Shown here: positions 1 through 31,578 of the stretch, one piece after another | How the letters are laid out: every line of letters begins with the position of its first letter | How positions within the stretch are numbered: the first letter of the stretch is position 1 | DNA from: Gemmatimonadaceae bacterium | GTDB lineage: Bacteria; Gemmatimonadota; Gemmatimonadetes; Gemmatimonadales; Gemmatimonadaceae | Assembly (NCBI GenBank): GCA_035253695.1 | Contig: DATFBS010000064.1 | Span: 1 to 50,696 of the forward strand | Direction: 5' to 3' | DNA length: 50,696 nt | Program-made: the position numbers and the translations under genes | The notes under the pieces: generated by a model | Databases searched by the model: none | Told to the model about the DNA's origin: nothing | The model's input: the letters and a program-made list of their open reading frames with translations, nothing else

Positions 1-588
1 ATCCTCGGCATCTTCGAGCGCGTAGCCTCTGAGAACGGCGCTCGCGATCGGCGATTCCGCGTCGAGCACGCGCAGCATATCGCACCGGCGGACATTTCGC
101 GCTTCGCGGCGCTCGATGTCATTCCGAGCATGCAGCCCTACCACGCGATCGACGACGGACGCTGGGCCGACAAGGTCATCGGGGCGGAGCGCTCGAGGAC
201 CACCTATGCGTTCCGTTCGCTACTCGATGCACGGGCCACACTCGCTTTCGGCAGCGACTGGTACGTCGCGCCGCCGACGCCCCTCGAAGGCATCTACGCC
301 GCCGTCACGCGCCGCACCATCGATGAGAAGCAGCCCGGCGGATGGGTGCCGGAGCAGAAGATCACCGTCGAAGAAGCCCTGCGTGCTTACACCATCGGCT
401 CCGCCCATGCGGAGTTTGCCGAGACCGAGAAGGGGTCCCTGGAGCGCGGGAAGCTCGCCGACTTCGTCCTTCTCGATCGCGACCTCACACGCGTTCCGCC
501 GGAGAGCATCCGCGAAGCACTTGTGATGATGACCGTCGTGGGTGGTCAGGTGGTCTTCGATCGAGAGACCGGTGGAGACAAGAGGTGA
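1..588 (+). CDS. amidohydrolase family protein (Amidohydro_3-like), C-terminal part; 5' end lies outside the window
   Basis: Frame-1 translation is open from nt 1 ([27 protein letters not shown]...) into the ORF 130..588. The C-terminal motifs (GSDW, GSAHAEF...[15 protein letters not shown]) are typical of metal-dependent amidohydrolases. Confidence 0.7.
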
Positions 589-1001
589 TGACCATTCGTG
601 CGCGGGTGTTGGTGGCGGCGCTTCTGGTCGCGGCATGCGACCAACCGAAGGAAGAAGTCCCTTCCGTCGGACAGACACCCATTCAGACCCGCGCCACGCG
701 CGAGGCGCGAATCCGCGAGCTCGAGCAGCAGGCGCGAGCGCTTGTCAGGACCGACGGCTGCGACCAGGCGAATCAATGCGCCACGGCACCGGTGGGCGTG
801 AAGGGATGCGGTGGCCCCCGGAGCTACCTCGTGTACTGTAAAGCGACAACGGATGAGGCAGCGCTGTTGCGCACCCTCGATGAGCTGAAGCGAGTCGAGG
901 AAGAGTACAATCGCGTGGAACAGATCGCGTCCGATTGTATGATGATCCTGCCTCCCGCGGTCCGGCTTGAGGGGCGTACCTGCGCGGCGGCGGTTCCCTG
1001 A
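588..1001 (+). CDS. hypothetical secreted protein or lipoprotein
   Basis: ATG at 588 overlaps the upstream TGA (TGATG), suggesting coupling. N-terminus [19 protein letters not shown] looks like a lipoprotein signal with a lipobox Cys. The ORF-track extension upstream of 588 overlaps the preceding gene out of frame. Confidence 0.5.
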   Translation: MTIRARVLVAALLVAACDQPKEEVPSVGQTPIQTRATREARIRELEQQARALVRTDGCDQANQCATAPVGVKGCGGPRSYLVYCKATTDEAALLRTLDELKRVEEEYNRVEQIASDCMMILPPAVRLEGRTCAAAVP

Positions 1002-1015
1002 CCTTTGCGCAACTT

Positions 1016-1172
1016 CCTTTTAAGAGGCGGTAGCACAGAGACACACCGAGACATTGCACAGAGACACATTGAGGAAGATCAACTGCGAAAGCTTTCCTGA
1101 AGCACTGCAGTGGAGTCCTCGGTGTGTCTGTGTGGAAAGTCTCGGCGTGTCTCTGTGCTACCGCTTTTCAGG
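1016..1172. repeat. long imperfect palindrome (~57-bp arms) built from CACAGAGACA/CCGAGAC units; the loop contains two mini-palindromes (GAAAGCTTTC, CACTGCAGTG)
   Basis: Left arm 1016-1075 is the reverse complement of right arm 1106-1172 with a few mismatches or indels. It lies between convergent genes. The right arm overlaps the last 4 codons of the regulator gene. Confidence 0.6.
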
Positions 1173-3599
1173 CTCGTTGCGCGATGAAGTCATCCGCGCG
1201 GCCCCCACGCGCCTGACGAGCGCCTCGTAGCGCGCGTCGCCGTGTAGCGGCCGCAGCTGCGGATCTACGCCGAGGAATGCCATAGAGTGCGAGCGCTCCT
1301 CGTACGCGCGCTCGAGCAGATCGAGGGCGCGCTCCCGCTCACCGAGCGCTAAATGAACCTTCGCGACCTCGTACTTGGGCACGTACCCTCGTGCGGCGAC
1401 CGTCTCCAGCTCACGCAGGAGCGCTCTCGCTCCGGCACTGTCCCGCGCGACCGCCCGCGCACGGGCGAGCGAGGCGACGAACAGCGTACTGCGATTGGTC
1501 AGCGTCGCGGCTCTCTCCAGCAACGTCACCGACTCGGCCTCGCGGCCGAGCTCCTGTAGTGCCCATCCACGCCAGAGCAGCGCCACAGCGTAGTCGGGAT
1601 CGAGCTCGAGCGTGAGCCGGCACTGCTCGGCTGCGCGCTCGTGCTCTCCAGCGTAATACAACACCCATCCGTGCGCCGCGCTCGCGATCAACGACAACGG
1701 GTCGATCTCCTGGGCGCGTCCCATGGCGCGCACCGCCTCTTCGAATCGGGCACGCACCGTCAGAAAGTTCGCGTACCACTGATACGCGGTCGAATAGCGC
1801 GGCCCGACTTCGATCGCGCGCGTGAACCACTCCTCGGCGCGCGGCCAGTTCCAGTTGTAATAGAGCTCGACGTACCCGAGTGTCGCGTACGGCTGCACCA
1901 ATGCGGAATCGATGGCCATGGCTCGCCGCGCTGCACGCTCCGCTCGCGGGAACGCCTCACGCGGCGCGAGGTAGTCATAGAAGCCCAGGACCGCGTGCGC
2001 GTCGGCGAGGCCCGCGTGCGCGAGCGCATACGTGGAGTCCTTCTCGATGGCCTGCGCGAAATACGCTGCCGCCGCTTTGAGGCCTTCTTCCGTGCGCCGG
2101 TACCACGAGTAGCGGCCTTTCATATACAACGCGTGGCGACCGCGCAGATAAAGATTGTACGCCTCGAGGTCCGTATCGCGCCGGGCTGTTGCCGCCGAAT
2201 CGGCGCGGCCGACGAGCGTCCCCTTGAGAGTCTCGACGATGGACCGCGAGATCTCCTCCTGAATGTCGAACACGTCCTCGAGCTTCCGCTCGTACGTTCG
2301 CGACCAGAGCTGATATCCGTCTAGCGCGTTGGAAAGCCGCGCCGTGATGCGCAGCGTGCTGTCGGCGGCCCGGACGCTGCCGTCGAGCACCGTGGCGACG
2401 CCGAGCTGCCTACCCACCTCACGCACGTCGAGCGTCTTTCCCTTGAACGCGAACGACGACGTGCGGGACGCCACGCGCACGCCCTGCACGCGACCGAGTG
2501 TGTTGATCAGCTCCTCGGTCATACCGTCGCTGAAATACTCGTGATCGTGCGCGGCACTGAGATCGACGAACGGAAGCACGGCGACGCTGGCGCTGCTCGC
2601 TTTACTTCCTTCGGACGCGCGACCGCGCGCGGTCATCGCGACGGCGATCACGATCGCGATGATGGCGGCGGCGACGGGCCACCAGTGTCTTCGCGTGGAG
2701 GGTTGTCTCGCGACGACAGCCGGCGGACTCGGCGTCTGCGTCGGTGGTGCCGACTCCGTCGCGACGCTGGCTGAGGCCGGTGGAGACGGAGCGGGCGCGA
2801 TCGGCTGCGCGCGCATCGATGCTGCCAGCTCCGCCACGGCTGCGTCCGGCTCGGTCCCGAATTCCTCGGCGAGGAGCGTCGCGTGGATACGAGCGTGCTG
2901 GAGCGCCGCGGCCCGGTCACCGGAGCGGTCGAGCGCCCGCATGAGCCTCACCACGACGCGCGAGCTATACGGGTCCTGCGCAGCCAGAGCACGCCACCAC
3001 CGAACGGCCTCGACCGCATTGCCTCGACGTTCGGCACTCTCACTGAGGGACTCGAGTACCCGTGCGTACGCGCGGCCCAGCCGATCGCGCTCGCCGGCAG
3101 CCCACCGCTCGAACTCCTCGGCGTCGGCGAGGAAGAAGCCATCGAGAAAGGGGCCGCCGTACAGCTCGGCTGCCCGCTGCCATTCCCCGCGCTCGATCGC
3201 GTCCTCGAAGTCGCCGACATCGCTCGGCAGCACATCGATCGAAAGGCGAAGGTCGTCACCGGCGCTGATGATCGCCTCCGCCCCAAGAGCCTGGTTCACC
3301 CGATAGATCGAATCGGAGAGGAGGGCTCGGCCGTGTTCGGCGTCCTGCTCGGGCCACAGATAGGCAATCAGCTTGTCGCGACTGACCCCTCGTCCACGGG
3401 CGGCGGCCAGCATCGCCAGCAGGGCGACGCGGCGCCGTTGAGCGGCGCGGCCGGCGAGAGGACCCGCCGGCGTCTGAATCGACGCGCCGCCGAGCAGCTT
3501 GAGTGAGAACACCTTAGGCGTGGCGAGAGCAGGGCGAGAAACGGACGAGAGCGCGCCGAGGCCGCTCCGACATGATACGCGCGCCCCCGGTCCGGGCAA
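1158..3599 (-). CDS. BTAD/SARP-type winged-helix transcriptional regulator with a TM segment, a TolB-N-like domain and C-terminal TPR repeats
   Basis: N-terminal OmpR/BTAD-like region (LKLLGGASIQT...RRRVALLAMLAAA...). One hydrophobic helix (WWPVAAAIIAIVIAVAM). A VLPFVDLS...YFSDGMTEELINTL motif as in TolB_N-like domains, followed by multiple TPR-like repeats. The true start may be an alternative codon downstream of 3599. Confidence 0.7.
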   Translation of the reverse strand: MPGPGARVSCRSGLGALSSVSRPALATPKVFSLKLLGGASIQTPAGPLAGRAAQRRRVALLAMLAAARGRGVSRDKLIAYLWPEQDAEHGRALLSDSIYRVNQALGAEAIISAGDDLRLSIDVLPSDVGDFEDAIERGEWQRAAELYGGPFLDGFFLADAEEFERWAAGERDRLGRAYARVLESLSESAERRGNAVEAVRWWRALAAQDPYSSRVVVRLMRALDRSGDRAAALQHARIHATLLAEEFGTEPDAAVAELAASMRAQPIAPAPSPPASASVATESAPPTQTPSPPAVVARQPSTRRHWWPVAAAIIAIVIAVAMTARGRASEGSKASSASVAVLPFVDLSAAHDHEYFSDGMTEELINTLGRVQGVRVASRTSSFAFKGKTLDVREVGRQLGVATVLDGSVRAADSTLRITARLSNALDGYQLWSRTYERKLEDVFDIQEEISRSIVETLKGTLVGRADSAATARRDTDLEAYNLYLRGRHALYMKGRYSWYRRTEEGLKAAAAYFAQAIEKDSTYALAHAGLADAHAVLGFYDYLAPREAFPRAERAARRAMAIDSALVQPYATLGYVELYYNWNWPRAEEWFTRAIEVGPRYSTAYQWYANFLTVRARFEEAVRAMGRAQEIDPLSLIASAAHGWVLYYAGEHERAAEQCRLTLELDPDYAVALLWRGWALQELGREAESVTLLERAATLTNRSTLFVASLARARAVARDSAGARALLRELETVAARGYVPKYEVAKVHLALGERERALDLLERAYEERSHSMAFLGVDPQLRPLHGDARYEALVRRVGAARMTSSRNEPEKR

Positions 3600-3629
3600 G
3601 ACACCTCACCGCATCTCTCAGGAGACGAT

Positions 3630-4205
3630 ATGCGTATGCCAATCACTGCCACAGTCGCCACGCCTGTACTGGCCGCCAGCGTGGTCGCGATCGCCCTCGC
3701 GTGCGCCGAGCGCCGCGAGCCGACGAGTCCAGCGGTCGCGCACGTGCACGTCGCCGCGAAGCAGACGGCCGCCCCCATTTCCGATCTGGGTCCCAAGCTG
3801 GCCGCGCTCAGGGGCGCGACCGCGCGATATCACGACTTCGCTGCGGCGCAGGCCGATGGATACGGCATTCAGGTCACCGGCTGCATGGAGGACGCGTCCC
3901 GAGGAGGAATGGGCTATCACTTCGGCAAAGGCGACCTGATCGATGGACAGGTGATCGAAGCGCGTCCGGAGGTATTGCTCTACGAGCCACAAGGGAAGGG
4001 GAAGCCGCGGCTCGTCGGGGTCGAGTTCATCATCCCCTTCACCGCGTGGACAGGTACCGAGCCGCCGACGCTTTATGGCCAGACCTTCGCGCGCAACGAG
4101 ACGTTCCAGGTTTGGGCGCTGCACGTCTGGGCGTGGCGGAACAACCCCGCCGGTGTGTTCACGGACTGGAATCCGGCGGTCAGCTGCGACCGCGACAACG
4201 CCTAA
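3630..4205 (+). CDS. hypothetical lipoprotein
   Basis: Signal peptide with LACAE lipobox. No recognisable catalytic motif. Divergent from the regulator gene. Confidence 0.5.
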   Translation: MRMPITATVATPVLAASVVAIALACAERREPTSPAVAHVHVAAKQTAAPISDLGPKLAALRGATARYHDFAAAQADGYGIQVTGCMEDASRGGMGYHFGKGDLIDGQVIEARPEVLLYEPQGKGKPRLVGVEFIIPFTAWTGTEPPTLYGQTFARNETFQVWALHVWAWRNNPAGVFTDWNPAVSCDRDNA

Positions 4206-4217
4206 CAGGAGCCTCTC

Positions 4218-4499
4218 ATGCGACGCTACATGATCGAGCGGGACCTGACGGGCGCCGGCCAGCTCACCGCGGATGAGCTCCGTGGCATCTCGACGAAGTC
4301 ATGTGAGGTGCTCCGTGACCTCGGCCCGGAGGTCCAGTGGGTGCAGAGCTACGTCACCGACGACAAGATCTACTGCGTGTACCTCGCGTCGAACGAGCGG
4401 CTGATCCGCGAGCACGCCAAGCGCGGGGGATTCCCCTGTAGCCGGGTGAGTGAAGTACGGGCAGGGATCGATCCGACGACGGCGGAGCTGAGGCAATAG
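4218..4499 (+). CDS. DUF4242-like small protein
   Basis: 93 aa. Pattern MRRYMIERDL...AGQLT..EL.....KSCEVLRDLGP.VQWVQSYVTDDKIYCVYLA...IREHAKRGGFP matches the DUF4242 family I recall. SD-like CAGGAG upstream. 13 nt after the previous gene. Confidence 0.55.
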   Translation: MRRYMIERDLTGAGQLTADELRGISTKSCEVLRDLGPEVQWVQSYVTDDKIYCVYLASNERLIREHAKRGGFPCSRVSEVRAGIDPTTAELRQ

Positions 4500-4500
4500 G

Positions 4501-4617
4501 TCCCAAGGGTCCTCAGGGTCCTCAGGGTCCTCAGGGTGCGTAGTGCTCAGGGGGTTCACACTCTGAGGACCCTGAGGACCCTGAGGACCCTGAGGACCCT
4601 GAGGACCCTTGGGACTA
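4501..4617. repeat. palindromic element made of tandem 9-mers: (GGGTCCTCA)x3, loop, (TGAGGACCC)x5
   Basis: Direct reading of 4501-4617. Arms are reverse complements with unequal repeat numbers. The loop sequence GGGTGCGTAGTGCTCAGGGGGTTCACACTCTGAGG is conserved in the second copy at 17947-18058. It sits between convergent genes. Confidence 0.75.
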
Positions 4618-5760
4618 GGGCTTTTGACTCGTCTCCACCGGCATTTCGAACTTCACCGGCAGCTGCACCAGCTGTCGCACGCGCTGGCCGCCGAGCAAAG
4701 CCGGATGGAATCGAGCGTTCTGCAGCGCGCGGCGTACGGCGTCGGTGAAGAGCGCGTGGCTCGTCGAGATCGCCGAGATGCTCTCGAGAACCACGAGGCC
4801 GCCTGTGTCGACCACGAACTCCACGAGGACCTGACCGGTCACGCGCTCACGGAACAGGGAATCGGGATACGCGGGCCGCACGGTCGAGCTGCTGTCGGGG
4901 CGCGCGACGTGATCGACCTGGTCGGCGGTGAAGAGCTGGCGCTCCTCGACCTGCTTGGTCAGCTCGGCCGGTGGGGCAGCGGCGCGCCGGGCCTTCCGCC
5001 GACGCTCCTCGAATCCCGTCCAGATCACGATGGCGCCGCATGAGCCCCCACCCCGGACCCACCGGAATTCGGGAGGAACGGTGGCCACGCCGAGGTAGAC
5101 CTCGATTCCCTCGATGATGTAGGGGTCCAGCGCGTCGAGGTCGAATTCTCCGGCGGTCGCCGGGAATCCGTCGAGCCAGACGAGCGGCGCACAACGCATC
5201 CCGCGGAACCGAACGACGTTCGAGAACGTCGACGAGTAGATGCGAGCGCCTGGGACGCTGCGGAACAGGTCGGTCACCTGCGACGGATTCCGCTGGTCGA
5301 TCTGCTCGCGCGTGATGAAATGCCCGCCTGACGAGCGTGAGCGCCGCTGGTAGAATCCCGCCAGCCGTCCATGTTCATCGAACCGGCGGTTGCCGCGGAC
5401 GATCACAGCGGCAAGTGACTGGGCAAGGGGGGTCACGATGACGGACATCGCTGCCGCCTCGTTGGCGGCGATCGCGATGCTGGCGACCGTGGGGATGAAT
5501 CCCAGCCGCCGGACGCCGACGGTGAGCGTGCCCGCGGGCACGTTCGTTAGGCGAAACTCGCCCTGGGCGTTGGTGTGCGCCCGCAGGTTGGTGCCGACGA
5601 TCGTGATCTCGGCTCCGGCGATTCCGGCTCCGGATGAGTCACGCACCATCCCCGCCACGGTACCGCGCGCCGACGGCTGCTGGGCGCGGAGGGACGCGGG
5701 AGTGAGCGCGAGCGCGCCCCCTGCCAGGCCAATGGCGGCCACGCCGCACAGACGACGCAT
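4615..5760 (-). CDS. TonB C-terminal domain protein with N-terminal CarboxypepD_reg-like and plug-like domains
   Basis: The likely start is MRRLCGVAAIGLAGGALALTPASLRAQQ (signal peptide) at 5760. The ORF-track start at 5844 adds 28 aa with no signal-peptide character. CarboxypepD_reg-like β-sandwich (GTVAGMVRDSSGAGIAGAEITIVGT...). C-terminal TonB-like motif (RVTGQVLVEFVVDTGGLV...RQLVQLPVKFEM). Confidence 0.6.
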   Translation of the reverse strand: MRRLCGVAAIGLAGGALALTPASLRAQQPSARGTVAGMVRDSSGAGIAGAEITIVGTNLRAHTNAQGEFRLTNVPAGTLTVGVRRLGFIPTVASIAIAANEAAAMSVIVTPLAQSLAAVIVRGNRRFDEHGRLAGFYQRRSRSSGGHFITREQIDQRNPSQVTDLFRSVPGARIYSSTFSNVVRFRGMRCAPLVWLDGFPATAGEFDLDALDPYIIEGIEVYLGVATVPPEFRWVRGGGSCGAIVIWTGFEERRRKARRAAAPPAELTKQVEERQLFTADQVDHVARPDSSSTVRPAYPDSLFRERVTGQVLVEFVVDTGGLVVLESISAISTSHALFTDAVRRALQNARFHPALLGGQRVRQLVQLPVKFEMPVETSQKP

Positions 5761-5946
5761 GGGACCACCTCCGCCTGCGAGGGTAGGGTCGGGGATGAGG
5801 GGGCGCAAGGGCCAGGCCGTCAGCGCAGTGTAAAGGCAGGCCAACGCTGAGGTCCGCGAGGTAGTGGAGGTAGTCCAGGCGATCGACGAGAAGTCGCCTG
5901 ATCAGCTTGGTCTACCTGGACTCCCTGGACAACCTGGGCAACCTCT

Positions 5947-6876
5947 CTAGGGCGTAATGTCTATCGCGAGATGAAGCTGTAGGTATCGCTCGATGACTCG
6001 AGCGAGAGAAGAAGCGAATCTCGCTCTGTTCTCTTCCGTATCCCGAACTCCAACTCGGTTCGACTCGATCTGCACCGCGCAGATCTGACCCCCTCCCCGA
6101 CACCCATGCACCGCGGTGTTATAGCCGCCGGCGAAGTACTCGGCGTCGCCGGGGTCGGGCGTCGAGTCGCTGGGAACGGCGGGGAAGCCCTCCGCCTCGA
6201 GCAGCGCGCCAAGGCTCGAAGGGCCGCGCAGCAGCTCGGAGAACGACAGTGGGGAGAGCACCGATATCGTTCGGATGCTGCTCGAGCTCTCGAACGCGGG
6301 GCGGCTGTCCAGAGAGTCGTTCGGCTTGCGAAGATCTCCCGCGTCCAGGAGATAGCCGAGCTCCAACCGCTGGATCGCGTGGCCATGGCCGTGCAGGTCG
6401 AGGTAGAGGCCGCCCGTGAGATCCCTGCTGATCGCGTTCTTGGCTTCGGCGATGAACTGGTGGAATTCCTGCCACGCGAGCTGGGCCTCCGCGTCCCCCT
6501 GTGCGCCCTCGACGATCTCGCGGTTCGCGTCGAGCTTCACGCGATGCAGGTGCACGATGACGACATGCGCATGCTTTCCCGTCAGCCTGACGAGAGCGGA
6601 ATCGGCCGCGCGAGCCAGCTCGCCCGTGTTCAGGTCGGTGACGGTCGTCCCGTACGTGCGATCGGGAATCTCCGCCGGTCGAAGCGATCCGCCGTGGGGC
6701 GCAGTGAGGATGACCGGAAGCTCTCCGGCGATGTACTCGATGTAGTTGTTGCGTCCGAAGTAGGAGGTGCCCGGCGTATAGCGCGCCGTGTCCACCGGGT
6801 CCACGCGCGGCGACGCCGGAGAGGCGCACGCCGACAGCAGGACGAGGAGTCCGAGCGACGAGCGAGCGTTCAGAAC
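5947..6876 (-). CDS. N-formylglutamate amidohydrolase (FGase)-fold zinc hydrolase, secreted or lipoprotein
   Basis: Motifs [19 protein letters not shown] and HGHGH are typical of the FGase/succinylglutamate desuccinylase-like fold. Lipoprotein-like N-terminus [10 protein letters not shown]. The exact start is uncertain: no ATG/GTG/TTG sits immediately before the signal peptide. The ORF-track extension to 7422 overlaps the E1 gene and is spurious. Confidence 0.5.
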
Positions 6877-8981
6877 GCCGCGATCTCCTGCACGACGCGC
6901 TTGAAATCGTCGATCTGCGGGAGGATCGCGTCTTCGAGCGACGGCGCGTAGCCGACGAACGTATCGGTCGACGCAATGCGCATCACCGGCGCGTCGAGCC
7001 AGGCGAAGCATTCCTGCGCGATCGCGGCGGCGATCTCGGCGCCGTATCCCCACGACAGCGAGTCCTCGTAGGCGACGATCACGCGATTCGTCTTCTTCGT
7101 CGATGCGAACACCGCCTCTCGATCCCACGGCGAAAGCGTGCGCAGATCGATCACCTCGACATCTGGACCGCCAGCCTCGGCGATCTGGTTCGCGGCGACG
7201 AGCGCGCGCTGCACCGTTGCACCGTAGGTGACGATGGTGATGTCCTTCCCGTCGCGGACCACCTTCGCCTTGCCGAACGGAATCATGAAGTTCGGCCCGG
7301 GGTACCGCGATTTGTTGTATGTCTGCCGATAGAGATGCTTGTGCTCGAGGAAGATCACCGGATCGTCGCAGCGAATCGCCGTGCGCAGCAATCCGTTGGC
7401 ATCGAGCGCGGTCGCGGGACACACGACGCGAAGCCCGGGCGTGTGCGTGAACAGCGACGCGCCGGTCTGCGAGTGGTAGACGGCACCGCGGATGTAGCCA
7501 CCGTAGGTCGTGCGCACGACGACCGGCGCGGAGAACGCGTTATTCGACCGCCAGCGCATCGTGGCCAGCTCGTCGCGGAGCTGCATGTATGCCGGCCAGA
7601 TATAATCGAAGAACTGAATCTCGACGACCGGCTTCAATCCGCGGATCGCCAGACCAACGGCGCGACCGACAATGTTCGCCTCGGCGAGCGGTGAGTTGTA
7701 GACACGGGTGCCGCCGAACTCCTTTTGCAGTCCCCACGTCACCTTGAAGACGCCACCCTTGCCTTTCACCTTGCCCATGTACTGCTCGCGTGACAGGTCG
7801 GCGACATCCTCACCGAACACCACGATCTTCTCATCGCGCCGCATCTCATCCTTCATGCACGCGTTGAGCAGATCGACCATCGTCGTCGGCTCGCCGGCGA
7901 ACTGTGGATCGTCCTCCGTGTCGAACGCATCGCTAGTGGGATCGACGTCGGGCGAATAAACGGCGAAGTACACCGTGTCAGCGGCGGGCTGCGGCTGGGC
8001 GAGGGCGTCGTCGGTCGCGGCAAGGATCTCGGCGTCCACCTCCTGACGAAGTCGATCGAGCTCATCCTCCGTCGCCATTCCCTCCGCCACCAGCCAGCGC
8101 GGGAAGGTGATGAGCGGATCGCGCTGCGCCTCCGCCTCGCGCTCCTCGGGAGGCTTGTAGAAGACCTCGTCGTCGGACTGTGAATGCGAGTACGGACGAA
8201 TGACGCGAGCGTGCACGAACGCCGGGCCCTTCCCTTTGCGCGTGTGATCGACGGCTTTCTTCATCACCTCGTATGAGGCGACCAGATCGCACCCGTCGAC
8301 TTCCAGGATCAACAGATTCGGGAAGCCGCTCACGAGCTTCGAGATCGAGCCACCCGCTGTATTCACCTCGACCGGGACGGAAATCGCGTAGCCGTTGTCC
8401 TCCACGAGGTAGACGATGGGCAGCGACAGATTGCAGGCGGTGTTGAGGGATTCCCAGAACTCGCCTTCGCTGGTCGTGCCATCGCCGGTGGTGACGAGAA
8501 CGATCTCATCTTTCTGGAAACCTTCGGTGAGGCCAAGCGCCTTCGCGCGAACGATTGCCTCAGCGGACCCGACTGCCTGGAGGAACTGCGTTCCGGTCGG
8601 CGACGAGGTGGAGACGATGTTCAGCTCTTTTTTTCCCCAGTGGCTGGGCATCTGCCGCCCGCCGGAGTTGGGATCGATCGCCGCGCCAACCGCCGAGTAG
8701 AGCATCTCCGCGGGCGTCATGCCGAGCTGCAGGCACAGCGCGCGGTCGCGGTAGTACATGTAGAACCAGTCATGCGCCGACCGCGTAACCATGCCAGCGG
8801 CGGTCAGGATCGCCTCATGTCCCGCGCCGGAGATCTGGAAGAAGATCTTATTCTGCTTCTTGAGCTGGATCTCTTTGTCATCGAGCCGGCGCGAGAGGTA
8901 CATCGTGCGATAGGCGGCGACGAGCTGATCGCGCCCGAGCTCCGATGTCCCTTTCCGCTCCGCTTTCGTTTGAGTCGCCAT
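6870..8981 (-). CDS. 2-oxoacid (pyruvate/branched-chain) dehydrogenase E1 component, fused alpha and beta subunits, TPP-dependent
   Basis: N-terminal E1-alpha TPP-binding region ([17 protein letters not shown]...GAGHEA...[15 protein letters not shown]) and C-terminal E1-beta transketolase-like region ([11 protein letters not shown]...[14 protein letters not shown]...). The start is set at [10 protein letters not shown] (ATG ~8981). The 39 upstream codons in the ORF track are translation of the repeat element. Confidence 0.8.
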
Positions 8982-8997
8982 AGAACTTGAAGATAGT

Positions 8998-9095
8998 CGT
9001 CGAACGAGGAACGAGGAACGAGGAACGAGGAACGAGGAAGCCGTCGCGAGCTCCGCGCCGCGTTTCCTCGTCCCTCGTTCCTCGTTCCTCATTGG
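8998..9095. repeat. palindromic element: (GAACGAG)x5, 22-nt loop, (CCTCGTT)-type units x4
   Basis: Direct reading. It lies in the divergent region between the E1 and HIT gene starts. The unit GAGGAAYGAGG is shared with the elements at 20053-20133 and 38488-38590. Confidence 0.65.
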
Positions 9096-9134
9096 CACCT
9101 TCCGTGCTTCTTCGAGTGGTACCAGGAGGGTCTC

Positions 9135-9617
9135 ATGGGAACGCAGTCAGGACACTGCATCTTCTGCGACATCATCAAGGGCGCGGCCGAGGTCTCGGTG
9201 TGCTACGAGGATACCGAGTCGATCGCGTTCATGGACATCCAGCCGGTGAACGCGGGCCACGTTCTTGTCGTGTCGCGGCAACACTTCGAGTCTTTCCTCG
9301 ACTTGCCGAAGAGTCTGGGGACGCACCTGTTCGAGGTGGCAATGCAGCTGGCGCCGGCCATTCGAAAGGTGTCGGGGGCCGACGGCATGAACCTCATCGT
9401 CTCGAGTGGAGCCTCGGCCGGTCAGGATGTGTATCACTTTCACATCCACCTGATCCCCCGGCGGCAGAACGATGGATTCGACGTCCCGCTCCCATTCGCC
9501 AACTCGGAGATGCCCGACCGTACGGTGCTCGACATGATGGCGGCGCGGATCATCAGCGCGTTACGGGATCCCACACGCGCGCGTCCGACGCCCCGTGAGG
9601 CGGCGGCCGTTCCGTGA
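9135..9617 (+). CDS. HIT (histidine triad) family protein
   Basis: HFHIHLIP histidine-triad motif. Zn-finger-like CIFCDI at the N-terminus. SD AGGAGGG 6 nt upstream. Confidence 0.8.
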
Positions 9618-9845
9618 CCTTTTTCGGGATGGCACCGTCGAAAATATGAAAGGCGGACGCGCCGCGCCCTTGCGCCCCGACGTTCCGCTCCGCATTCGTA
9701 AGGCGCGCGGTGCTCCACCGTACCCGCGCCGATCAACGACTGGAGGCACATGAGCGTCGATCGACGACCCTCTTCCGACCGAACAGACCGTCGGCCCACC
9801 GTCGTCGTCCTACGCTGGTGCACTCTATCCACCATGCCACATCGC

Positions 9846-9892
9846 CCCGCCCGGGTTCCCCATCCGGCGCGGGGCGACGTGCTTTTCGGCGA
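9846..9892 (+). terminator. GC-rich hairpin (TCGCCCCGCCCGG..CCGGCGCGGGGCGA) followed by CTTTTC; terminator or attenuator-like
   Basis: Inverted repeat read directly. A short T-run follows. It ends ~10 nt before the SD (GAGGTG) of the HNH gene and ~230 nt after the HIT gene. Confidence 0.3.
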
Positions 9893-9898
9893 GGTGCA

Positions 9899-10303
9899 AT
9901 GTCTCGGCACGGCATTCATCGCATCTGCCTTCCCCGCGCCCCGCGTGGCCTTCTCCGGCGGCGCCGTTCCTCCCACCTCCGTCACGTCGATTTCAAGCGA
10001 GCGCTCAAGCGCGCCGTAATGCGCGACTGCGGCCGGCGCTGCGTGTACTGCGGTGCCGGGCTCGAGCATGATCATGCGACCATCGATCACGTGCACCCGC
10101 GCGCGCGGGGAGGCATCACCGCGTACGGGAACCTCGTCGCCGCCTGCGCACCCTGCAATCGACTGAAGGGTGACATGCTGCCGCACGATTTCTTCGTCCG
10201 ATATCCGCTGGCGGGGATGAACTTTCTGTTGTACGCGCGGGTGGTGCATCGCGCCTTGAAGCGCGGCGCGCGACGCGCGGTGAGTCTGGCCCTGGCGGCG
10301 TGA
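9899..10303 (+). CDS. HNH endonuclease domain protein
   Basis: CVYCG...HDHATIDHVHP...GG...NLV.ACAPCNRLKGD matches the HNH C-x2-C/H-N-H/C-x2-C pattern. The start is chosen at the ATG with a GAGGTG SD (9899). The ORF-track start at 9710 is probably an extension and 10019 is an alternative. Confidence 0.55.
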   Translation: MSRHGIHRICLPRAPRGLLRRRRSSHLRHVDFKRALKRAVMRDCGRRCVYCGAGLEHDHATIDHVHPRARGGITAYGNLVAACAPCNRLKGDMLPHDFFVRYPLAGMNFLLYARVVHRALKRGARRAVSLALAA

Positions 10304-10313
10304 AGTAGGAACT

Positions 10314-10434
10314 AGTGGTCAGGGGTCAGGGATCAGGGGGTGTCAGGGAGGAGGTTGAAGGAGAGAACGGCGCGCTGAAGTTCTCTCCTATGACCTATTC
10401 CCTGACACCCCCTGATCCCTGACCCCTGACCACT
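10314..10434. repeat. 37-bp near-perfect inverted repeat of (GGTCAGG/GATCAGGG) units with a nested inner hairpin (GGAGAGAAC...GTTCTCTCC)
   Basis: 10314-10350 is the reverse complement of 10398-10434 with one mismatch. The inner 9-bp stem is at 10361-10389. It lies between convergent HNH and nadE genes. Confidence 0.75.
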
Positions 10435-10446
10435 AACTCCTGGCTC

Positions 10447-12288
10447 TCAATAATCCACCGGCCTTAAGTACGACTCGCCAATCGCATTCGGGCTCACCAT
10501 CGCGACCGTGGGCAACCGGCGCTTCCAGTGCGTACCCTCGAGGCGCTGCCTGACGAGCTCCACTTCCTTGCCCTCGAAGCCGCGCGCCACCAGTTCGGCG
10601 GGCGCGTAGCCGCTGAGCAGCCATTGGAGAATCCGATCGGCTTTCTCATAGGTGATGCCGAGATCCCCCTCGTCCGTCTGACCGTGGATGAGATCAGCCG
10701 TGGCGGGCTTTTCGACGATGGCCTTCGGAACGCCGAGATGGCGCGCCAGCTGCCAGACTTGCGTCTTGAACAGGTCGCCAAGCGGATTCACCGGAGGCGA
10801 GTCGTCGGCGTGCCAGGTGAAATAGCCGAACAGGCGCTCCGTCTTGTTCCCCGTGCCTAACGGAATGGCCTGGTACTTGGACGACAGATCGAAGAGCGCG
10901 ATCATGCGCACGCGCGCCATCACGTTGCCGCGACGGCCCGGGGACGCATCGGACTCGGCGGTGAGATACCCGTCCACCGCCGGGGAGATGTCGAGCGTTC
11001 TTCCCGTGATACCGAGCGCGTCGATGACGAGCTGCGCGTGCTCCAGGCTCTCCCTGCTCGAGGTGCGATAGGGCAGTCGCACACCGATGACGTTTTCGGG
11101 GCCGAGTGCGCGCGCCGCGAGAAAGGCGGTGACGGCGGAGTCGACTCCGCCGGACAGGCCAATGATCCCCTTCGAGAATCCGCGGCGCTTCACTTCCTCC
11201 TCGATGAAGTGCACGAGCCATTTTTCCGTCAGGCCGCCGTCGATGTCGAGCGGCGGTGGCCCGCCCGCCCCTTCGAGCGGCGCGACCTGAACGACCCGCA
11301 GCGGACCGCGCGCGGGCGCCTCGACATCGGGATGCACCAACGCGTGATCCCCGTTCTCACTGGGCGGATCGAAGGCGAGGGGTGGCGCCTCACGAGACTC
11401 CTTCGCGAGCAGGCTTTCCATGAGATGCGGCATCGCCGTGCGGAGATCGGCGAGCAGTGGCATGTCGGCGCGCGCACGGGTGAGGTCGGCGAGGTCGAGG
11501 GGCAGCGTCACCAGCGCTTCATCCCAGAGCGGTGCGCGAGTGCGGACGTCACCCTTCGGGCCCGAAATGAGCGACGCCCCGGAGAAGATCTTTCCCCCCT
11601 CACTCCCGGCGAGGTTCGCGAAGGACACGAAGACGCCATGCTCCTCGGCGATGTCCCGGATGAGACGCTCCCATCGCGCGACACTCGCGGGGCCCGGAAT
11701 CGCGTCTTCACGAGGCCACGCCCCCCGCGCCGGTGCCGCGCTCGAGACGAAAATGACCTGCGCACCATCGAGCGCGGCGAGCGTTCCCGAGAGCGAATGC
11801 CAGGCGTCTTCGCAGACGAGAATCGCCGCGCGTCCCCACGATGTATCGAAGGCGTGAAACTCGTGGCCGCGCTCGACGAACCGCTCCTCATCGAACAGCC
11901 CGTACGTCGGAAGGAACACTTTGCGGTGTACGTGCAGCACATCCGGTCCCTCGGGGCCGAGTGTGACGTACATCGCGCTGTTGAAGAGCGTGTTCTGGAA
12001 GATCTCGTAGAAGCCGACGACGACGTCGAGGCTCGCCAGCCCGTTGGTCGCACCGCGCCACGCGTCCTGCAGGTCGCGCGCGAGCGTTCCCGCGGTGACG
12101 GCGAGATCCCGCACGCCGCCTTCGACGAAGTACCCGGTGAGCGCGGTCTCGGGGAGATGCAACACCTGCGGCCGCGGGCGCATGCCGTTCACCTGCGCGA
12201 ACACTTCGCGGAGCCGCGTCAGATTCGCGGCGTAGTCGCCCTTCGCGGGCTTGATCTGAGCAAGGGCGAGGTGAACGAGGGGGGGCAT
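10447..12288 (-). CDS. nadE: glutamine-dependent NAD+ synthetase (N-terminal CN-hydrolase domain and C-terminal NAD synthetase domain)
   Basis: Nitrilase-superfamily region (ILVCEDAWH). ATP-pyrophosphatase region with SGGVDSAV P-loop and GTGNKTE..FGYFT motifs. 613 aa. Confidence 0.85.
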   Translation of the reverse strand: MPPLVHLALAQIKPAKGDYAANLTRLREVFAQVNGMRPRPQVLHLPETALTGYFVEGGVRDLAVTAGTLARDLQDAWRGATNGLASLDVVVGFYEIFQNTLFNSAMYVTLGPEGPDVLHVHRKVFLPTYGLFDEERFVERGHEFHAFDTSWGRAAILVCEDAWHSLSGTLAALDGAQVIFVSSAAPARGAWPREDAIPGPASVARWERLIRDIAEEHGVFVSFANLAGSEGGKIFSGASLISGPKGDVRTRAPLWDEALVTLPLDLADLTRARADMPLLADLRTAMPHLMESLLAKESREAPPLAFDPPSENGDHALVHPDVEAPARGPLRVVQVAPLEGAGGPPPLDIDGGLTEKWLVHFIEEEVKRRGFSKGIIGLSGGVDSAVTAFLAARALGPENVIGVRLPYRTSSRESLEHAQLVIDALGITGRTLDISPAVDGYLTAESDASPGRRGNVMARVRMIALFDLSSKYQAIPLGTGNKTERLFGYFTWHADDSPPVNPLGDLFKTQVWQLARHLGVPKAIVEKPATADLIHGQTDEGDLGITYEKADRILQWLLSGYAPAELVARGFEGKEVELVRQRLEGTHWKRRLPTVAMVSPNAIGESYLRPVDY

Positions 12289-12424
12289 CGCCTTAAAGAT
12301 GGTCGAGATCGGCGTTGGAGGCCAGCTTTCGGGTCTAACGCCAAAGACGTCCCAATGTCGGAATACGGAGTTCAGAACTCAGACATAACGATGGGACCCG
12401 CAATCCCCGGTGTCGACGCCGCGG

Positions 12425-13888
12425 TCACCTCGTGATGAACGGAGGAGGCTTGATCGCATTCACGCATTGAGTATCTACGCCTGTCAGGCCACCCCGCCTG
12501 ATGAACTCCACGACGATCGCTTCGACGCATTTCTCCGCCCCTGCGTGTGCCATGCCCGGCACCGTGATCACGGTCGCGTTAGGCACGGCGCTGGCGACCG
12601 CGGCAGCGAGCCGAGGTGGCGTCACCGGGTCCAGCGCTCCGGAGATGACGAGGACGGAAAGGGGGCGCGTGGCGACCGGTTCGACGCCGGGCGGCCTCGC
12701 ATGCGGCCACACGGCACACGCCTCCTGGTACATCCGCAGGCGATAGTCCCCAAGGAAGGTCGCGTGTCCGTGTCCCGGCGGACGCGCTTCCATCGCATCC
12801 CTGGGAAGCCTGCTATCGACGCAGGCCACACTCAGGTGCGCGCCGACATCGAGCTGATCGAACACCACTCGGCTGAGCTCGTACGCCACTCTCACGAACG
12901 GAGTCCAGTCTCCGCCGTGAGCGGCATGAACGACTATCGGAATGCGACGGGACAGGCGCGTCGAGTAAAGCATGAGTCGGAGGCGATCGGCGAAGACGCC
13001 GCGTGTCAGACTCACGGTGATGCTGTCGCGGGAGCGCGGATGCTCCACGCGCAACGACATCGGTCCGCGGTCGAACCGCTCGAGCAGCGCATTCAGCTCG
13101 CTTCGTAAGCGCGGAAACGAGCCTCGACAGAATGGATCGGCTGCGCAATCCAGCATGACACGCTCGAGTGCCGCTTGTGCGTCACCCGCGGCCGAGCGTG
13201 GAAGCGACGCGCCGAGCGGCATGGCACCCTGCAGCACGACGGTCCGGAGACGGTCCGCGTGCCTTCCCAAGTAGTCCAGGGCGACCTGCGTGCCGTAGGC
13301 GCTGGCATCGAGATCGATCGAGGAAAAGCCGAGCGCGCTTCGCACTGCTTCGAGATCGGCGGCGGCATTGGCGGTCGTGTACTGCGTCAGGTCGGCACGG
13401 CGGGAGAGGCGCAACGCGCACGCCCGGACTGAATCGGAGGGGAATTGGTCGCCGAGGTACGCGCCGACGTCGCCGGCCGTTCCGTAGAACTCGCAGCGCA
13501 ACGCATTCGAGGCCCCGGTTCCGCGCTGATCGACGAGCACGATGTCGTGCGTCGCCCGCGTCGTCGAATGCGAAGCGGCAACCAGGTCGGCGAGCGGTGT
13601 GGCCGCCAAGCCGGGGCCACCGACCAGATAAAACAACGCCTGCCGCGGGGCGTTCGCGGGAGCACGCGAGGGCAGAATGACGATCCGAAGCGGTATCGTG
13701 CGGCCACCCGTGATCGCCCGGTTCTCGGGGACCTCGAGGGTGGCGCAGCGGACCTGTTCGTCGAGCCCGGGTACGCGACAGGGACTGGACGACAGCGCTG
13801 GCTGGGCGAATCCGACTCTTACCGCACAGACTCCGAGTCCGGCCAATGTTGCCGCCCAGCCGGCGTGCCGCGTTAGCATGGTCATCAC
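12425..13888 (-). CDS. secreted alpha/beta hydrolase (proline iminopeptidase/TAP-like S33 family)
   Basis: Signal peptide. GGPG oxyanion motif (FYLVGGPGLAA). Nucleophile elbow-like SAYGTQVA. C-terminal TAP-like region. Confidence 0.65.
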   Translation of the reverse strand: MMTMLTRHAGWAATLAGLGVCAVRVGFAQPALSSSPCRVPGLDEQVRCATLEVPENRAITGGRTIPLRIVILPSRAPANAPRQALFYLVGGPGLAATPLADLVAASHSTTRATHDIVLVDQRGTGASNALRCEFYGTAGDVGAYLGDQFPSDSVRACALRLSRRADLTQYTTANAAADLEAVRSALGFSSIDLDASAYGTQVALDYLGRHADRLRTVVLQGAMPLGASLPRSAAGDAQAALERVMLDCAADPFCRGSFPRLRSELNALLERFDRGPMSLRVEHPRSRDSITVSLTRGVFADRLRLMLYSTRLSRRIPIVVHAAHGGDWTPFVRVAYELSRVVFDQLDVGAHLSVACVDSRLPRDAMEARPPGHGHATFLGDYRLRMYQEACAVWPHARPPGVEPVATRPLSVLVISGALDPVTPPRLAAAVASAVPNATVITVPGMAHAGAEKCVEAIVVEFIRRGGLTGVDTQCVNAIKPPPFITR

Positions 13889-13978
13889 TCAATCCTCGCC
13901 GCGCGTGTCGATCGTCACAAGCTATGAGCCGTACGTGCTGATACCATTCGGGTCCCTTCGGGGTATTTTTCTGGACGT

Positions 13979-16024
13979 ATGAATCGCTCGATCAGTCCTC
14001 GCCTCCTTCTCGTCACAGCGCTGTTCGCGCTCCCGGCGCTTTCAACGCCGTTGCTGTCCGCGCCTGTGCTGCTTGCACAGGAGACGGAAAGCTCCGAGCC
14101 GTGGCGTCTCATTCAGCCGCCGCAGTCCTCGCTCGTCGTTGCGCGTGATGGCTCGCTCATCGGTGAGATCGGGAAGGAGTGGCGCACATCCGTATCCATC
14201 AAGTCGCTGCCGAGGTACGTACCGCAGGCGTTCGTCGCCATCGAGGATCACCGCTTCTACGAGCACGGTGGCGTCGACGTCATCGGGATCGCCGGCGCGA
14301 TCAAGGATGCGGTCACCGGCTCACCGCGCGGCGCGAGCACGATCACGCAGCAGCTCGTCGGGAACATGCATCCGGAGGAGATCGATCGCCGCGATCGGTC
14401 GCTCAGCCGCAAGGTTCGCGAGCAGCGCGCCGCGATCGAGATGGAGAAGCGCTATTCGAAGGATGAGATCCTCGAGGCGTACCTGAATCAAATCGCGTTC
14501 GGCCACGGCTGGTACGGCATCGAGGCGGCGGCACGGCACTACTTCGGGAAAAGCGCGGCGCGTCTGACGCTCGAAGAAGCGGCCACGCTGGCGGCGCTTC
14601 CGAAGGGGCCGGCCATCTACGATCCCATTCGTCATCCCGACCGCGCGAAGAGCCGTCGCGATGAAGTACTCGGGCGAATGGCGGCCAACGGATTCATCAC
14701 CCGCGCGCAGGCGGATGCGGCGAAGAAGCGCCCCCTCGTCGTTGCGCCCAACATGGGGATGTCGGCACCGTCGCCGTACTTCGTGGATGTCGTTAGGTCT
14801 CAGGCGGAGCGCGCCGGGGTACCGGTGATGAATGGGGGATACCGGATCGTCACGACGCTCGATGCCGCGTTGCAGAACGCCGCCGTCGAAGCGCTGACGG
14901 AGGGCACGCGTCGCGTCGAGGGGCTACCAGGATACGGGCAGCCGACCTATGCGAAGCGTGCGCGCGGCCAGCTCGACTATTTGCAGGGCATGGTCGTGTC
15001 GCTGGACGCTCTCACCGGAGAGGTTCGTGCGCTCGTCGGCGGACGTGATTACGCCGAGTCGCCGTTCAATCGAGCGGTCAACGGTGTTCGTCAGCCGGGA
15101 TCGGCGTTCAAGCCGATCGTCTATGCGGCAGCCGTCACCGACAGCATGCCGGCGAACGCGATCGTTCCCGATACCGCGATCGCGATTCCCTTGCCGGACG
15201 GTACGATGTACGAGCCAGGGAACGCCGACGATGAGTTCCTCGGGCCCATCACTGTTCGCGAGGCGCTGGTGCGCTCGCGCAATCCCGTCGCCGTGCAACT
15301 CGGGCTGTTGGTGGGAATGGATTCGGTCGCGTCCTTCGCGCGCCGTATGGGCATCGAGTCGCAGATCGTGCCCGTGCCATCGTCGGCGATCGGGGCCTCG
15401 TCGCTGCGCCCCATCGAACTCGTCGCCGCGTATTCGGCGTTCGCCACGTTAGGTGTGGCGGTCGAGCCGCGCTACATCACGCGCATCGAGGATCGCACCG
15501 GTCGCCCCGTGTGGACGCCGGAGCCGAAGCCGCCCGCCCTCGCGATCGATCCGCGGGTCGCCTTCATCGTGCGCGACATCATGCGGGAAGCCGTGGAGCG
15601 GGGAACGGGCTCATGGGTCCGAAGGCTGGTCGACCCGCGGGTTCCCGTGGCGGGGAAAACGGGCACGACGAACGACAACACCGACGTGTGGTTCGTCGGG
15701 ATGACGCCGGAGCTGGTCGCGGGGGTATGGCTCGGATTCGACCGTCCGCGGCCGATCGCCCGCGGCGCGGGAGGCGGGACGTACGCGGCCCCCATCTTCG
15801 GTCAGATGATCGCGAAATACTACGAGGGCAGAGCGGTCGGTACGTGGACGCCGCCAGCGGGTCTCGTGTCGGCCGAGCTCGATCGCGCAACCGGCCTGCT
15901 CGCCGACGCGTTCACGCCGGATGAGCGCCGCTATACGGAGTACTTTCTCGAGGGGACGGAGCCGATCGAGCTGCGGCCGACTCCGTGGATGATATTCCAG
16001 TACGGGCCACTGGGTGGTGCTTGA
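13979..16024 (+). CDS. class A penicillin-binding protein (bifunctional GT51 transglycosylase/transpeptidase, PBP1A type)
   Basis: GT51 motifs (EDHRFYEHGGVD, GASTITQQL, RKVRE, KDEILEAYLN). Transpeptidase motifs (SAFKP, SRN, KTGTT). Confidence 0.85.
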   Translation: MNRSISPRLLLVTALFALPALSTPLLSAPVLLAQETESSEPWRLIQPPQSSLVVARDGSLIGEIGKEWRTSVSIKSLPRYVPQAFVAIEDHRFYEHGGVDVIGIAGAIKDAVTGSPRGASTITQQLVGNMHPEEIDRRDRSLSRKVREQRAAIEMEKRYSKDEILEAYLNQIAFGHGWYGIEAAARHYFGKSAARLTLEEAATLAALPKGPAIYDPIRHPDRAKSRRDEVLGRMAANGFITRAQADAAKKRPLVVAPNMGMSAPSPYFVDVVRSQAERAGVPVMNGGYRIVTTLDAALQNAAVEALTEGTRRVEGLPGYGQPTYAKRARGQLDYLQGMVVSLDALTGEVRALVGGRDYAESPFNRAVNGVRQPGSAFKPIVYAAAVTDSMPANAIVPDTAIAIPLPDGTMYEPGNADDEFLGPITVREALVRSRNPVAVQLGLLVGMDSVASFARRMGIESQIVPVPSSAIGASSLRPIELVAAYSAFATLGVAVEPRYITRIEDRTGRPVWTPEPKPPALAIDPRVAFIVRDIMREAVERGTGSWVRRLVDPRVPVAGKTGTTNDNTDVWFVGMTPELVAGVWLGFDRPRPIARGAGGGTYAAPIFGQMIAKYYEGRAVGTWTPPAGLVSAELDRATGLLADAFTPDERRYTEYFLEGTEPIELRPTPWMIFQYGPLGGA

Positions 16025-16041
16025 GATCGTTTAGCTAAACT

Positions 16042-16154
16042 TCCGAAGACGTCGGACATCAGACGTCAGAGTTCAGATGTCAGAAACCGAAACCGCACTA
16101 GGCAACGAGGTGTCTGACGTCTGACCACTGACGTCTGATGTCTGAGGTCTTCGG
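16042..16154. repeat. imperfect palindrome built from GACGTCAGA-type units (~42-bp arms)
   Basis: 16042-16083 is approximately the reverse complement of 16111-16154. It sits directly after the PBP gene and overlaps the ORF-track start of the next gene. Confidence 0.6.
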
Positions 16155-16181
16155 ATGTGTCTCTTCTCGCAAACCATCGCA

Positions 16182-16934: not shown

Positions 16935-16947
16935 CCCTGAGGTAGTC

Positions 16948-19310: not shown

Positions 19311-19312
19311 CG

Positions 19313-31546: not shown

Positions 31547-31578
31547 GCCTGTCGCCTCACAAGCCCCGGCAGAGAAGA

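Follow-up and report, generated by a model that had tools for sequence, protein, structure and literature searches.

Hairpins with tandem-repeat arms form a dispersed palindrome family at gene ends in soil Gemmatimonadaceae

What does a palindrome of about 120 nucleotides (nt), with arms built as tandem arrays of a nonamer, do between bacterial genes, and how did it come to be there? The question is raised by a stretch of 50,696 nt from a Gemmatimonadaceae bacterium (GenBank assembly GCA_035253695.1, contig DATFBS010000064.1, positions 1 to 50,696; hereafter the window), in which two such elements have tandem GGGTCCTCA arms around a conserved asymmetric centre. The GGGTCCTCA elements are a dispersed, multi-copy, lineage-restricted intergenic palindrome family of soil Gemmatimonadaceae. 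Their best explanation, held here to be fairly probable, is a family comparable to the repetitive extragenic palindromic (REP) elements and REPINs, which changes by slippage and by recombination between its arms, and which forms a barrier lacking a U-tract at the 3' ends of transcripts.

Element 1 (4499–4615) takes up exactly the space from the stop codon of one gene to that of its convergent neighbour. Its 5' arm (4500–4537, plus strand) consists of GTCCCAAGG, three copies of GGGTCCTCA and GGGT, its centre (4534–4563, plus strand) reads GGGTGCGTAGTGCTCAGGGGGTTCACACTC and includes the near-invariant family loop GTGCTCAGGG, and its 3' arm (4564–4615, plus strand) has five copies of TGAGGACCC followed by TTGGGAC. 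The outer arms, 38 nt each, are 100% complementary in an inverted-repeat scan. Folded as RNA the element reaches -109.5 kcal/mol (z = -10.8) and as DNA -58.8 kcal/mol (z = -10.3), with 0 of 200 shuffles as good in either case. The TAG stop (4497–4499) of an SCO4226-like gene of 93 amino acids (aa; 4218–4499, plus strand) touches the 5' arm, and the stop of a CarboxypepD_reg-Plug-TonB_C gene (4615–5760, minus strand; 381 aa as called in the database), read as CTA on the plus strand at 4615–4617, touches the 3' arm.

Element 2 (17948–18067) begins 7 nt downstream of the stop codon (18074–18076) of a cupin gene of 118 aa (18074–18430, minus strand) and runs over the 5' end of the next gene. Its left arm (17948–17988, plus strand) is composed of GGGTGCTCA, three copies of GGGTCCTCA and GGGT, its centre (17985–18014, plus strand) is GGGTGCGAGGTGCTCGGGGTTTTCGCACCC, one base off the centre of a non-orthologous element at locus L079, and its right arm (18015–18067, plus strand) has four copies of TGAGGACCC and about two of TGAGCACC(C). 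The arms of 41–45 nt are 98–100% complementary, and the RNA fold (-110.9 kcal/mol, z = -12.7) is again unmatched in 200 shuffles.

All 15 exact matches to the nonamer in the window lie inside these two elements. With up to one mismatch there are 24 matches, compared with 12.8 ± 3.6 in shuffled sequence (0 of 100 shuffles reach 24), and Tandem Repeats Finder scores the focal arrays at 64–100. A chance origin of the two palindromes is excluded. A preliminary description of the window, made from its letters, had reported two tandem-nonamer palindromes; its reading agrees essentially with the present one and its quoted centres are correct letter for letter. It also placed both elements, the second at 17947–18058, slightly short of the extent given above.

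The nonamer is not confined to the window. A pattern scan for the 18-mer (GGGTCCTCA)x2, with one genome per species, listed 100 matches, of which 34 are stretches from four Gemmatimonad metagenome-assembled genomes (MAGs), 31 of them from the Gemmatimonadaceae MAGs DATFFP01 (SMAG_U8639) and JAICOJ01 (OFX_bin.8). Among the matches listed, the inverted-pair architecture is found in 26 of the 34 Gemmatimonad stretches and in 0 of the 66 from other taxa. The genome-wide pattern search proposed in the preliminary description is thus positive, with at least 26 inverted-pair loci in Gemmatimonad MAGs. One JAICOJ01 locus is 80% identical at the DNA level to window positions 1195–2060, which places the window in a related genome of the family, distinct from the representatives scanned.

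Family members are built as n copies of GGGTCCTCA, a conserved asymmetric centre and m copies of TGAGGACCC. The centre GGGTGCGA-GGTGCTCAGGG-TTTCGCACCC is common to 20 elements aligned from three genomes; its inner stem GGGTGCGA/TCGCACCC closes the loop GGTGCTCAGGGTT, the core of which is invariant or nearly so. Non-orthologous loci share this asymmetric loop, which could not be created independently at each site, and the family therefore spread by copying or gene conversion. Independent birth of each element in situ is ruled out by the common centre; growth and change of resident elements in situ are nonetheless observed.

The count of two copies in the preliminary description proved a great understatement. 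Besides the many family members elsewhere, the window itself holds about nine further hairpins of the same architecture, i.e., a tandem array of a short unit on one arm and an array of its complement on the other. Repeat scans and folds give a total of about 11, with different units of 7–11 nt. A hairpin detector built on Tandem Repeats Finder gives a density of 1.6 per 10 kb for the window and 1.7 per 10 kb for the fetched Gemmatimonadaceae MAG loci, a value biased upward by the choice of loci through the 9-mer. The density is 0.25 per 10 kb in 80 loci of more distant soil Gemmatimonadota and about 0.03 per 10 kb in about 65 loci of unrelated taxa. More than 20 unit families were seen, nearly every unit being 7 or 9 nt long. 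Nothing specific on hairpin repeats in Gemmatimonadota was found in the literature searched, coverage of which was incomplete.

Several other origins were considered and rejected. Arrays of GGGTCCTCA on one strand, lacking an inverted partner, were seen in Streptomyces, Paenibacillus and Frankia, in giant-virus MAGs and in phage contigs; they are probably collagen-like Gly-Pro-Gln coding repeats (GGT CCT CAG). A coding repeat of this kind does not account for element 1, which lies between two stop codons, nor for element 2, where the only frame through the element gives VLRVLR and not GPQ. A phage or virus origin was dismissed, as none of the 32 viral contigs has the inverted-pair architecture. 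An assembly artefact was rejected because the elements are found again in assemblies made independently (ERZ27257136, ERZ27257138, Logan SRR5195107 and four GTDB MAGs); with at most 60 nt, the arms also fall short of the assembly k of 141. A known RNA family was discarded on the strength of zero Rfam matches at gathering score in the whole window.

Are the arms as unstable as their unequal unit numbers, three and five in element 1, had suggested? Five independent contigs, 99.2–99.85% identical to the window, were retrieved through exact-protein look-ups (L001/L184, L102, L103, L185 and L191). Over the 41.7 kb of the window that they cover there are nine indel events, and five of these are whole-unit changes in hairpin arms, although hairpins make up 3.1% of the compared sequence (binomial p = 3e-6). 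For element 1, the window and L185 have 3 left and 5 right units, and L001 has 5 left and 4 right (+18 nt, -9 nt). Single 7-nt units are lost at 9002 and 10317 (both in L001) and at 20108 (in L102). The hairpins with imperfect arrays (31327, 35555 and 38498) are unchanged among strains, as slippage predicts. Whole-unit arm changes at 99% strain identity bear the signature of slipped-strand mispairing. The claim of slipped-strand expansion and contraction made in the preliminary description is borne out by these indels, and the comparison of unit counts between strains that it proposed is positive for element 1 and for three other hairpins, each shorter by one 7-nt unit. Element 2 itself is identical in L102, the sole second allele that covers it. 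The short-read contig L103 (Logan SRR5195107_11549) terminates in the right arm of element 2, at window position 18043, which suggests that hairpins of this type can break assemblies.

Over longer distances the elements change in place. DATFFP01 and JAICOJ01 are 89–94% identical, mostly 92–94%, and retain GGGTCCTCA elements at orthologous sites; copies thus stay in position across about 7% DNA divergence. The orthologous elements differ in unit numbers and in A/G unit variants. In two of the compared orthologue pairs (L017/L013 and L019/L008) the centre is reverse-complemented between identical flanks. Such an inversion is the expected product of recombination between inverted arms, and its signature at the sequence level.

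At greater divergence one site may be filled in different ways. The convergent gap beside the CarboxypepD_reg gene of element 2 is 13 nt long in the window and 17 nt, with a single unit, in L190; the same gap holds a full hairpin in L189 and a hairpin of another unit in L186. Upstream of a HIT gene, a GAACGAG hairpin is found in the window and in L104, a GGATTGC hairpin between identical flanks in L105, and none in L106 and L107. Hairpins are thus gained, lost or swapped for another unit family at one site, at 82–91% protein identity. An idiosyncratic 25-mer, GGTGCTCGAGGTGCTCAATGTGCTC, is common to an element of L186 and an element of L189 at different sites. The hairpins that follow the PBP gene in the window and in L186 differ by five pairs changed on both sides and five changed on one side, with none broken. 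The elements are long-lived residents that change in place and are also gained, lost and replaced.

Long intergenic hairpins that lack tandem-repeat arms also turn over in the lineage. An imperfect hairpin of about 230–260 nt is present in one MAG (L049, 6108–6370) and missing at the orthologous site of another (L023, 5300–5390; about 93% identical), and L044 and L088 provide a further case.

Where do the hairpins sit? By a map of the window's genes, which was compared with database gene calls and Pfam, nine of 10 window hairpins start 0–27 nt after a stop codon. At the Gemmatimonad loci, 55 of the 56 classifiable hairpins are intergenic, as in REP-like elements, and one further hairpin is intragenic. 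Set against all gaps of at least 40 nt, convergent contexts are over-represented (20 observed, 10.4 expected), tandem contexts are near expectation (28 and 27.3) and divergent contexts are under-represented (8 and 18.2; chi-square p = 7e-4). In tandem contexts the median hairpin lies 5 nt from the upstream stop codon, in convergent contexts 3 nt, and in convergent pairs the two stop codons often base-pair at the foot of the stem. Convergent gaps that lack a hairpin measure only about 13 nt. In tandem contexts 17 of 28 hairpins stop no more than 18 nt short of the predicted start of the downstream gene or overlap it.

Both focal copies abut CarboxypepD_reg genes, as was noted in the preliminary description, but the adjacency is coincidental and a functional link was rejected: no Pfam family occurs more than twice among 63 proteins that flank family members in DATFFP01 and JAICOJ01. 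The domain is common locally (four of 49 window proteins). The 381-aa protein beside element 1 has an unusual combination of CarboxypepD_reg, Plug and TonB_C, and lacks the beta-barrel of a TonB-dependent receptor.

The CarboxypepD_reg gene at element 2 (16948–18084, minus strand) is a special case. Orthologues (MKYRFPLLLTVALLPAALSAQG...) show what the element has overwritten, namely the gene's own start and half of the signal peptide. The only ATG that gives an open frame is at 18084; it shares sequence with the final codons of the cupin gene upstream, and the frame runs through the hairpin as MPSRAEVLRVLRV...TLRTLRTLSTLLPASLSAQG. L186 and L189 have this ATG too, and in L189 it is the called start. 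The window has at this site a 6/4-unit hairpin (in gene orientation) with outer units of the GGTGCTC type, as in the orthologous hairpins of L186 and L189, and with inner units and a centre of the family type. L186 (86% protein identity) has a 3/4-unit hairpin of GGTGCTCGA units followed by an intact start codon, L189 (82%) a small 2/1-unit hairpin of GGGTGCTCA units, and L190 (81%) a gap of 14 nt and no hairpin. An exact-protein look-up with the neighbouring gene (16155–16934) returned no record.

Such placement raises the possibility of a contingency switch, in which unit number tunes or switches the expression of the adjacent gene: the 9-nt units of element 2 keep the open reading frame (ORF) into the CarboxypepD_reg gene, and 7-nt changes would shift frame or spacing. 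Unit numbers do differ between near-identical strains, as in hypermutable simple sequence repeats, element 2 and the hairpin at 20054–20131 overlap the 5' ends of downstream genes, and the 17 tandem hairpins close to a downstream start point the same way. Phase variation is nevertheless considered very improbable. With a stop codon on either side, element 1, like most other copies, has no reading frame or promoter to affect, so that the placement typical of a switch is seen at element 2 at best, and this element is invariant in the single strain available. The neighbouring genes, moreover, show no enriched functional class.

The favoured explanation gives the elements a role at the ends of transcripts. 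The family would have spread either as whole elements that were copied or through gene conversion from one copy to another, and copies would survive where insertion is harmless, i.e., at gene 3' ends. There, a hairpin of -110 kcal/mol at the end of an mRNA, formed on either strand, would act as a bidirectional barrier without a U-tract, which would stop or pause RNA polymerase and block 3'–5' exonucleases in the manner of REP elements and bacterial interspersed mosaic elements (BIMEs) in enterobacteria. Since the arms are arrays, unequal unit numbers can still pair in a shifted register, and slippage would therefore be tolerated. Where an element overlaps the start of the next gene (element 2 and 20054–20131), it would occlude the translation start of that gene.

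The hairpins may replace classical terminators. In window positions 1–20000, hairpin-plus-T terminators of the canonical kind show no enrichment (six, compared with 8.9 expected in shuffles) and none of them lies at a gene end. The tandem-armed hairpins themselves are G+C-rich and follow the stop codon shortly (median 3–5 nt), as terminators do. They were rejected as canonical intrinsic terminators, because they have no U-tract and the terminator scan flags none of them.

A number of observations weigh against the transcript-end role. The stems are not followed by a T/U tract (2.2 T per 10 nt on the sense and 2.25 on the antisense side, with a TTT run in 7%). In tandem contexts the fold energy favours the sense strand in 12 cases and the antisense strand in 15 (p = 0.72), and G-U pairs, 53 in sense and 66 in antisense, show no excess. 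The sequences thus bear no trace of selection specific to the sense-strand RNA. Eight of the 56 hairpins, one of them in the window, sit in divergent promoter regions. Purifying selection acting on a repeat that is neutral or selfish would produce the enrichment at 3' ends just as well, and the gene contexts outside the window come from a simple codon-usage gene caller, checked against database calls for the window-related loci only. No transposase or RAYT gene was found among the 49 window proteins, and no target-site duplication or flanking direct repeat was seen in 20 convergent-site elements or in the comparison of a filled with an empty site.

The main rival takes up several of these points. 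In it the hairpins are purely selfish or neutral mobile elements, similar to REPINs or to MITEs (miniature inverted-repeat transposable elements) and copied by a hairpin-recognising enzyme encoded elsewhere, e.g., an IS200/IS605-type or RAYT-like transposase; their place after stop codons reflects tolerance of insertion in a compact genome, and effects on transcripts are incidental. The conserved asymmetric loop in non-orthologous copies of three genomes, the presence, absence and family replacement at one site, the sub-variant found at different sites and the lack of strand bias all agree with it. Element 2, which overwrote the start and signal peptide of a gene intact in orthologues, resembles damage rather than function, and with hairpin-free convergent gaps of about 13 nt any insertion automatically abuts both stop codons. 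What counts against such an element is, apart from the missing transposase in a window of 50 kb and the lack of target-site duplications or defined termini, that the copies persist and evolve in place across 82–93% identity and that their pairing is kept through changes on both sides. The unit is also non-palindromic, and the ends lack the GTAG/CGTC tag of REPs (PMC3733652). On balance a purely selfish element is judged unlikely, while the two remaining rivals, phase variation and a structure at the DNA level, are weaker still.

The DNA-level rival rests on the base composition of the arms. Read on either strand, the 5' arm is G-rich in 18 unit families, C-rich in one and has equal G and C in six, including GGGTCCTCA (p = 8e-5). 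In the loci compared (window, L002–L088 and L104–L167) the 5' arm is almost always G-rich or purine-rich and the 3' arm C-rich. Six of the eight canonical G-quadruplex motifs of the window lie in the arms of three hairpins, both focal elements included, and on each strand's 5' arm (GGGTCCTCA)x4 matches G3-N6-G3-N6-G3-N6-G3, a pattern that needs at least four units. The elements could then be cruciforms or G-quadruplexes, or both, with effects on supercoiling, replication or recombination, or with a nucleoid protein bound to them, irrespective of transcription. The very stable DNA hairpin, the lack of asymmetry between sense and antisense and the confinement of the motifs to the 5' arm of each strand would fit, and an equal polarity, with G-quadruplex formation in vitro, is reported for the GGGAATC pairs of Xanthomonas (PMC4692102). 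On the other side, most unit families have no G-runs (GAACGAG, CTGCGAA, AGACGTC, CAGAATA, TGACACGGA), GGGTCCTCA itself has three G and three C, a fully complementary partner arm should out-compete a quadruplex with 6-nt loops, and the tight association with stop codons is left unexplained. The DNA-level explanation is thus regarded as improbable.

The other hairpins of the window follow the same pattern with different units. Between convergent genes, 1027–1164 has 10–11-nt units (AGCACAGAGAC) and 10307–10441, between an HNH and a NadE gene, 7-nt GGTCAGG units, with one unit fewer in L001. The HNH gene (10043–10303, plus strand), which ends 4 nt before this hairpin, encodes a small stand-alone endonuclease of 86–94 aa that may be connected with the repeats. 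Gene stops are followed by an imperfect hairpin of roughly 9-nt units (GGAGGTAGT / ACCTGGACA; 5842–5950, after an FGase-like gene), by 16039–16158 (7-nt AGACGTC units, after the PBP gene, with an orthologous hairpin in L186) and by 38498–38583 (7-nt GAGGAAT / GAGTGAG units). The hairpin at 9002–9093 (7-nt GAACGAG units, one fewer in L001) is the sole one of the window in a divergent promoter region. Two larger hairpins with TGACACGGA units, 31327–31552 and 35555–35730, both downstream of gene stops within a run of minus-strand genes, are paralogues; compared as 31320–31560 and 35548–35738 they measure 190–240 nt, have a long structured centre and one orientation, and are 77% identical over their full length.

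The hairpin at 20054–20131 (7-nt CGAGGAA units, one fewer in L102) contains the start codon, at 20092, of a PIG-L family gene. This ATG/GTG is part of the 5' arm's last GAGGAA-type unit, the arm carries repeated Shine-Dalgarno-like GAGGA motifs, and the pyrimidine-rich 3' arm encodes hydrophobic residues of the signal peptide (SSFLVPF). The arrangement is repeated in L186 at about 7862–7940.

How do these hairpins compare with known systems? Among published systems, the inverted pairs of GGGAATC heptamers in Xanthomonas come closest. Genomes of X. campestris and X. axonopodis have 70–75 inverted pairs of GGGAATC arrays able to form stem-loops, and the arrays were studied as G-quadruplex motifs (Rehm et al. 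2015, PMC4692102). Of the arrays, 89–93% are intergenic, and they lie nearer to the 5'-neighbouring ORF, at 28 nt on average; 16% are between convergent ORFs and 7–8% between divergent ones, and related genomes differ in array length but not in array type, be it single or an inverted pair (PMC4692102). The likeness extends to close inverted arrays of one short unit, intergenic position near the upstream ORF, variable length and the G-rich array placed first (PMC4692102). The hosts differ, Gammaproteobacteria with one G-rich heptamer there and Gemmatimonadota with more than 20 unit families and a focal 9-mer of equal G and C here. A conserved centre, centre inversion, stop-to-stop filling and unit changes at the strain level are not described in the passages of that study consulted (PMC4692102).

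REP and REPIN elements are the closest functional and evolutionary concept, but membership fails on the definition of the REP unit. A REP is an imperfect palindrome of 20–40 nt tagged with GTAG or CGTC (Di Nocera et al. 2013, PMC3733652), and REP/BIME elements and REPINs are mobilised by RAYT (TnpA-REP) transposases (Bertels & Rainey 2011, PMC3116915; PMC3733652). In both cases high-copy extragenic palindromes occupy the 3' ends of genes and the gaps of convergent pairs, inverted doublets give long hairpins, and families are vertically persistent and lineage-specific. For enterobacterial REPs, roles in stabilisation of mRNA 3' ends and in termination have been proposed. The hairpins described here likewise consist of two inverted repeats around a spacer; their arms are arrays of a non-palindromic 7- or 9-nt unit, not single REPs. 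The element ends read AAGGGTCC...GGACCCTT, i.e., (A)AGGGTCC...GGACCCT(T), with neither a REP palindrome nor a GTAG/CGTC tag, and hypervariable unit numbers are not a REP trait.

Other comparisons are more partial. With MITEs the elements share inverted arms, but no target-site duplication was recognised in the compared sites. With the hairpin-only ("I-shaped") and bidirectional terminators of high-G+C bacteria they share a G+C-rich stem-loop right after the stop codon, symmetric between convergent genes; the stems here, at 40–60 bp, are several-fold longer, the arms are repetitive and the sequences form multi-copy families. The BOX elements of Streptococcus pneumoniae and minisatellite-containing MITEs, e.g., those of Porphyromonas gingivalis (PMC4596501), are also small, dispersed, foldable intergenic repeats with an internal module that varies in copy number among loci and strains. 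Their module is enclosed by unique terminal boxes or inverted repeats, whereas here the inverted repeat consists of the repeated module and only the centre is unique. Flip-flop inversions associated with plastid hairpins and parvovirus telomeres likewise leave an asymmetric centre in both orientations between the same flanks; this analogy is limited to the recombination mechanism and is silent on the function or origin of the element.

A broader reading, put forward tentatively and as a whole rather doubtful, would make hairpins with tandem-repeat arms a distinct class of bacterial intergenic element, a "microsatellite palindrome", with dynamics of its own, which took over a terminator or insulator role in this lineage. 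Such elements would be seeded at gene ends, lengthen through slippage on both arms, regain their pairing by arm-to-arm conversion, undergo centre flips, and be exchanged between sites. Some would also supply the gene that follows with its ribosome-binding site, its start codon and codons of its signal peptide, and their G-rich-first polarity, as in Xanthomonas, would point to a common mechanistic constraint.

For practical purposes, the hairpins are hypervariable markers for strain typing in metagenomes, can break short-read assemblies, as the contig that ends inside element 2 suggests, and mislead gene callers, which place start codons inside them. The elements also offer a natural system in which a structural element is under microsatellite dynamics, with unit change at 99%, centre inversion at 93% and family replacement at about 90% identity. 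The observation of inverted heptamer pairs in Xanthomonas is extended to a second phylum and to many unit sequences, which argues that the architecture matters and not the G-quadruplex potential of one unit. If the hairpins are working 3'-end signals, an abundant and poorly studied soil phylum would end or insulate its transcripts without U-tract terminators.

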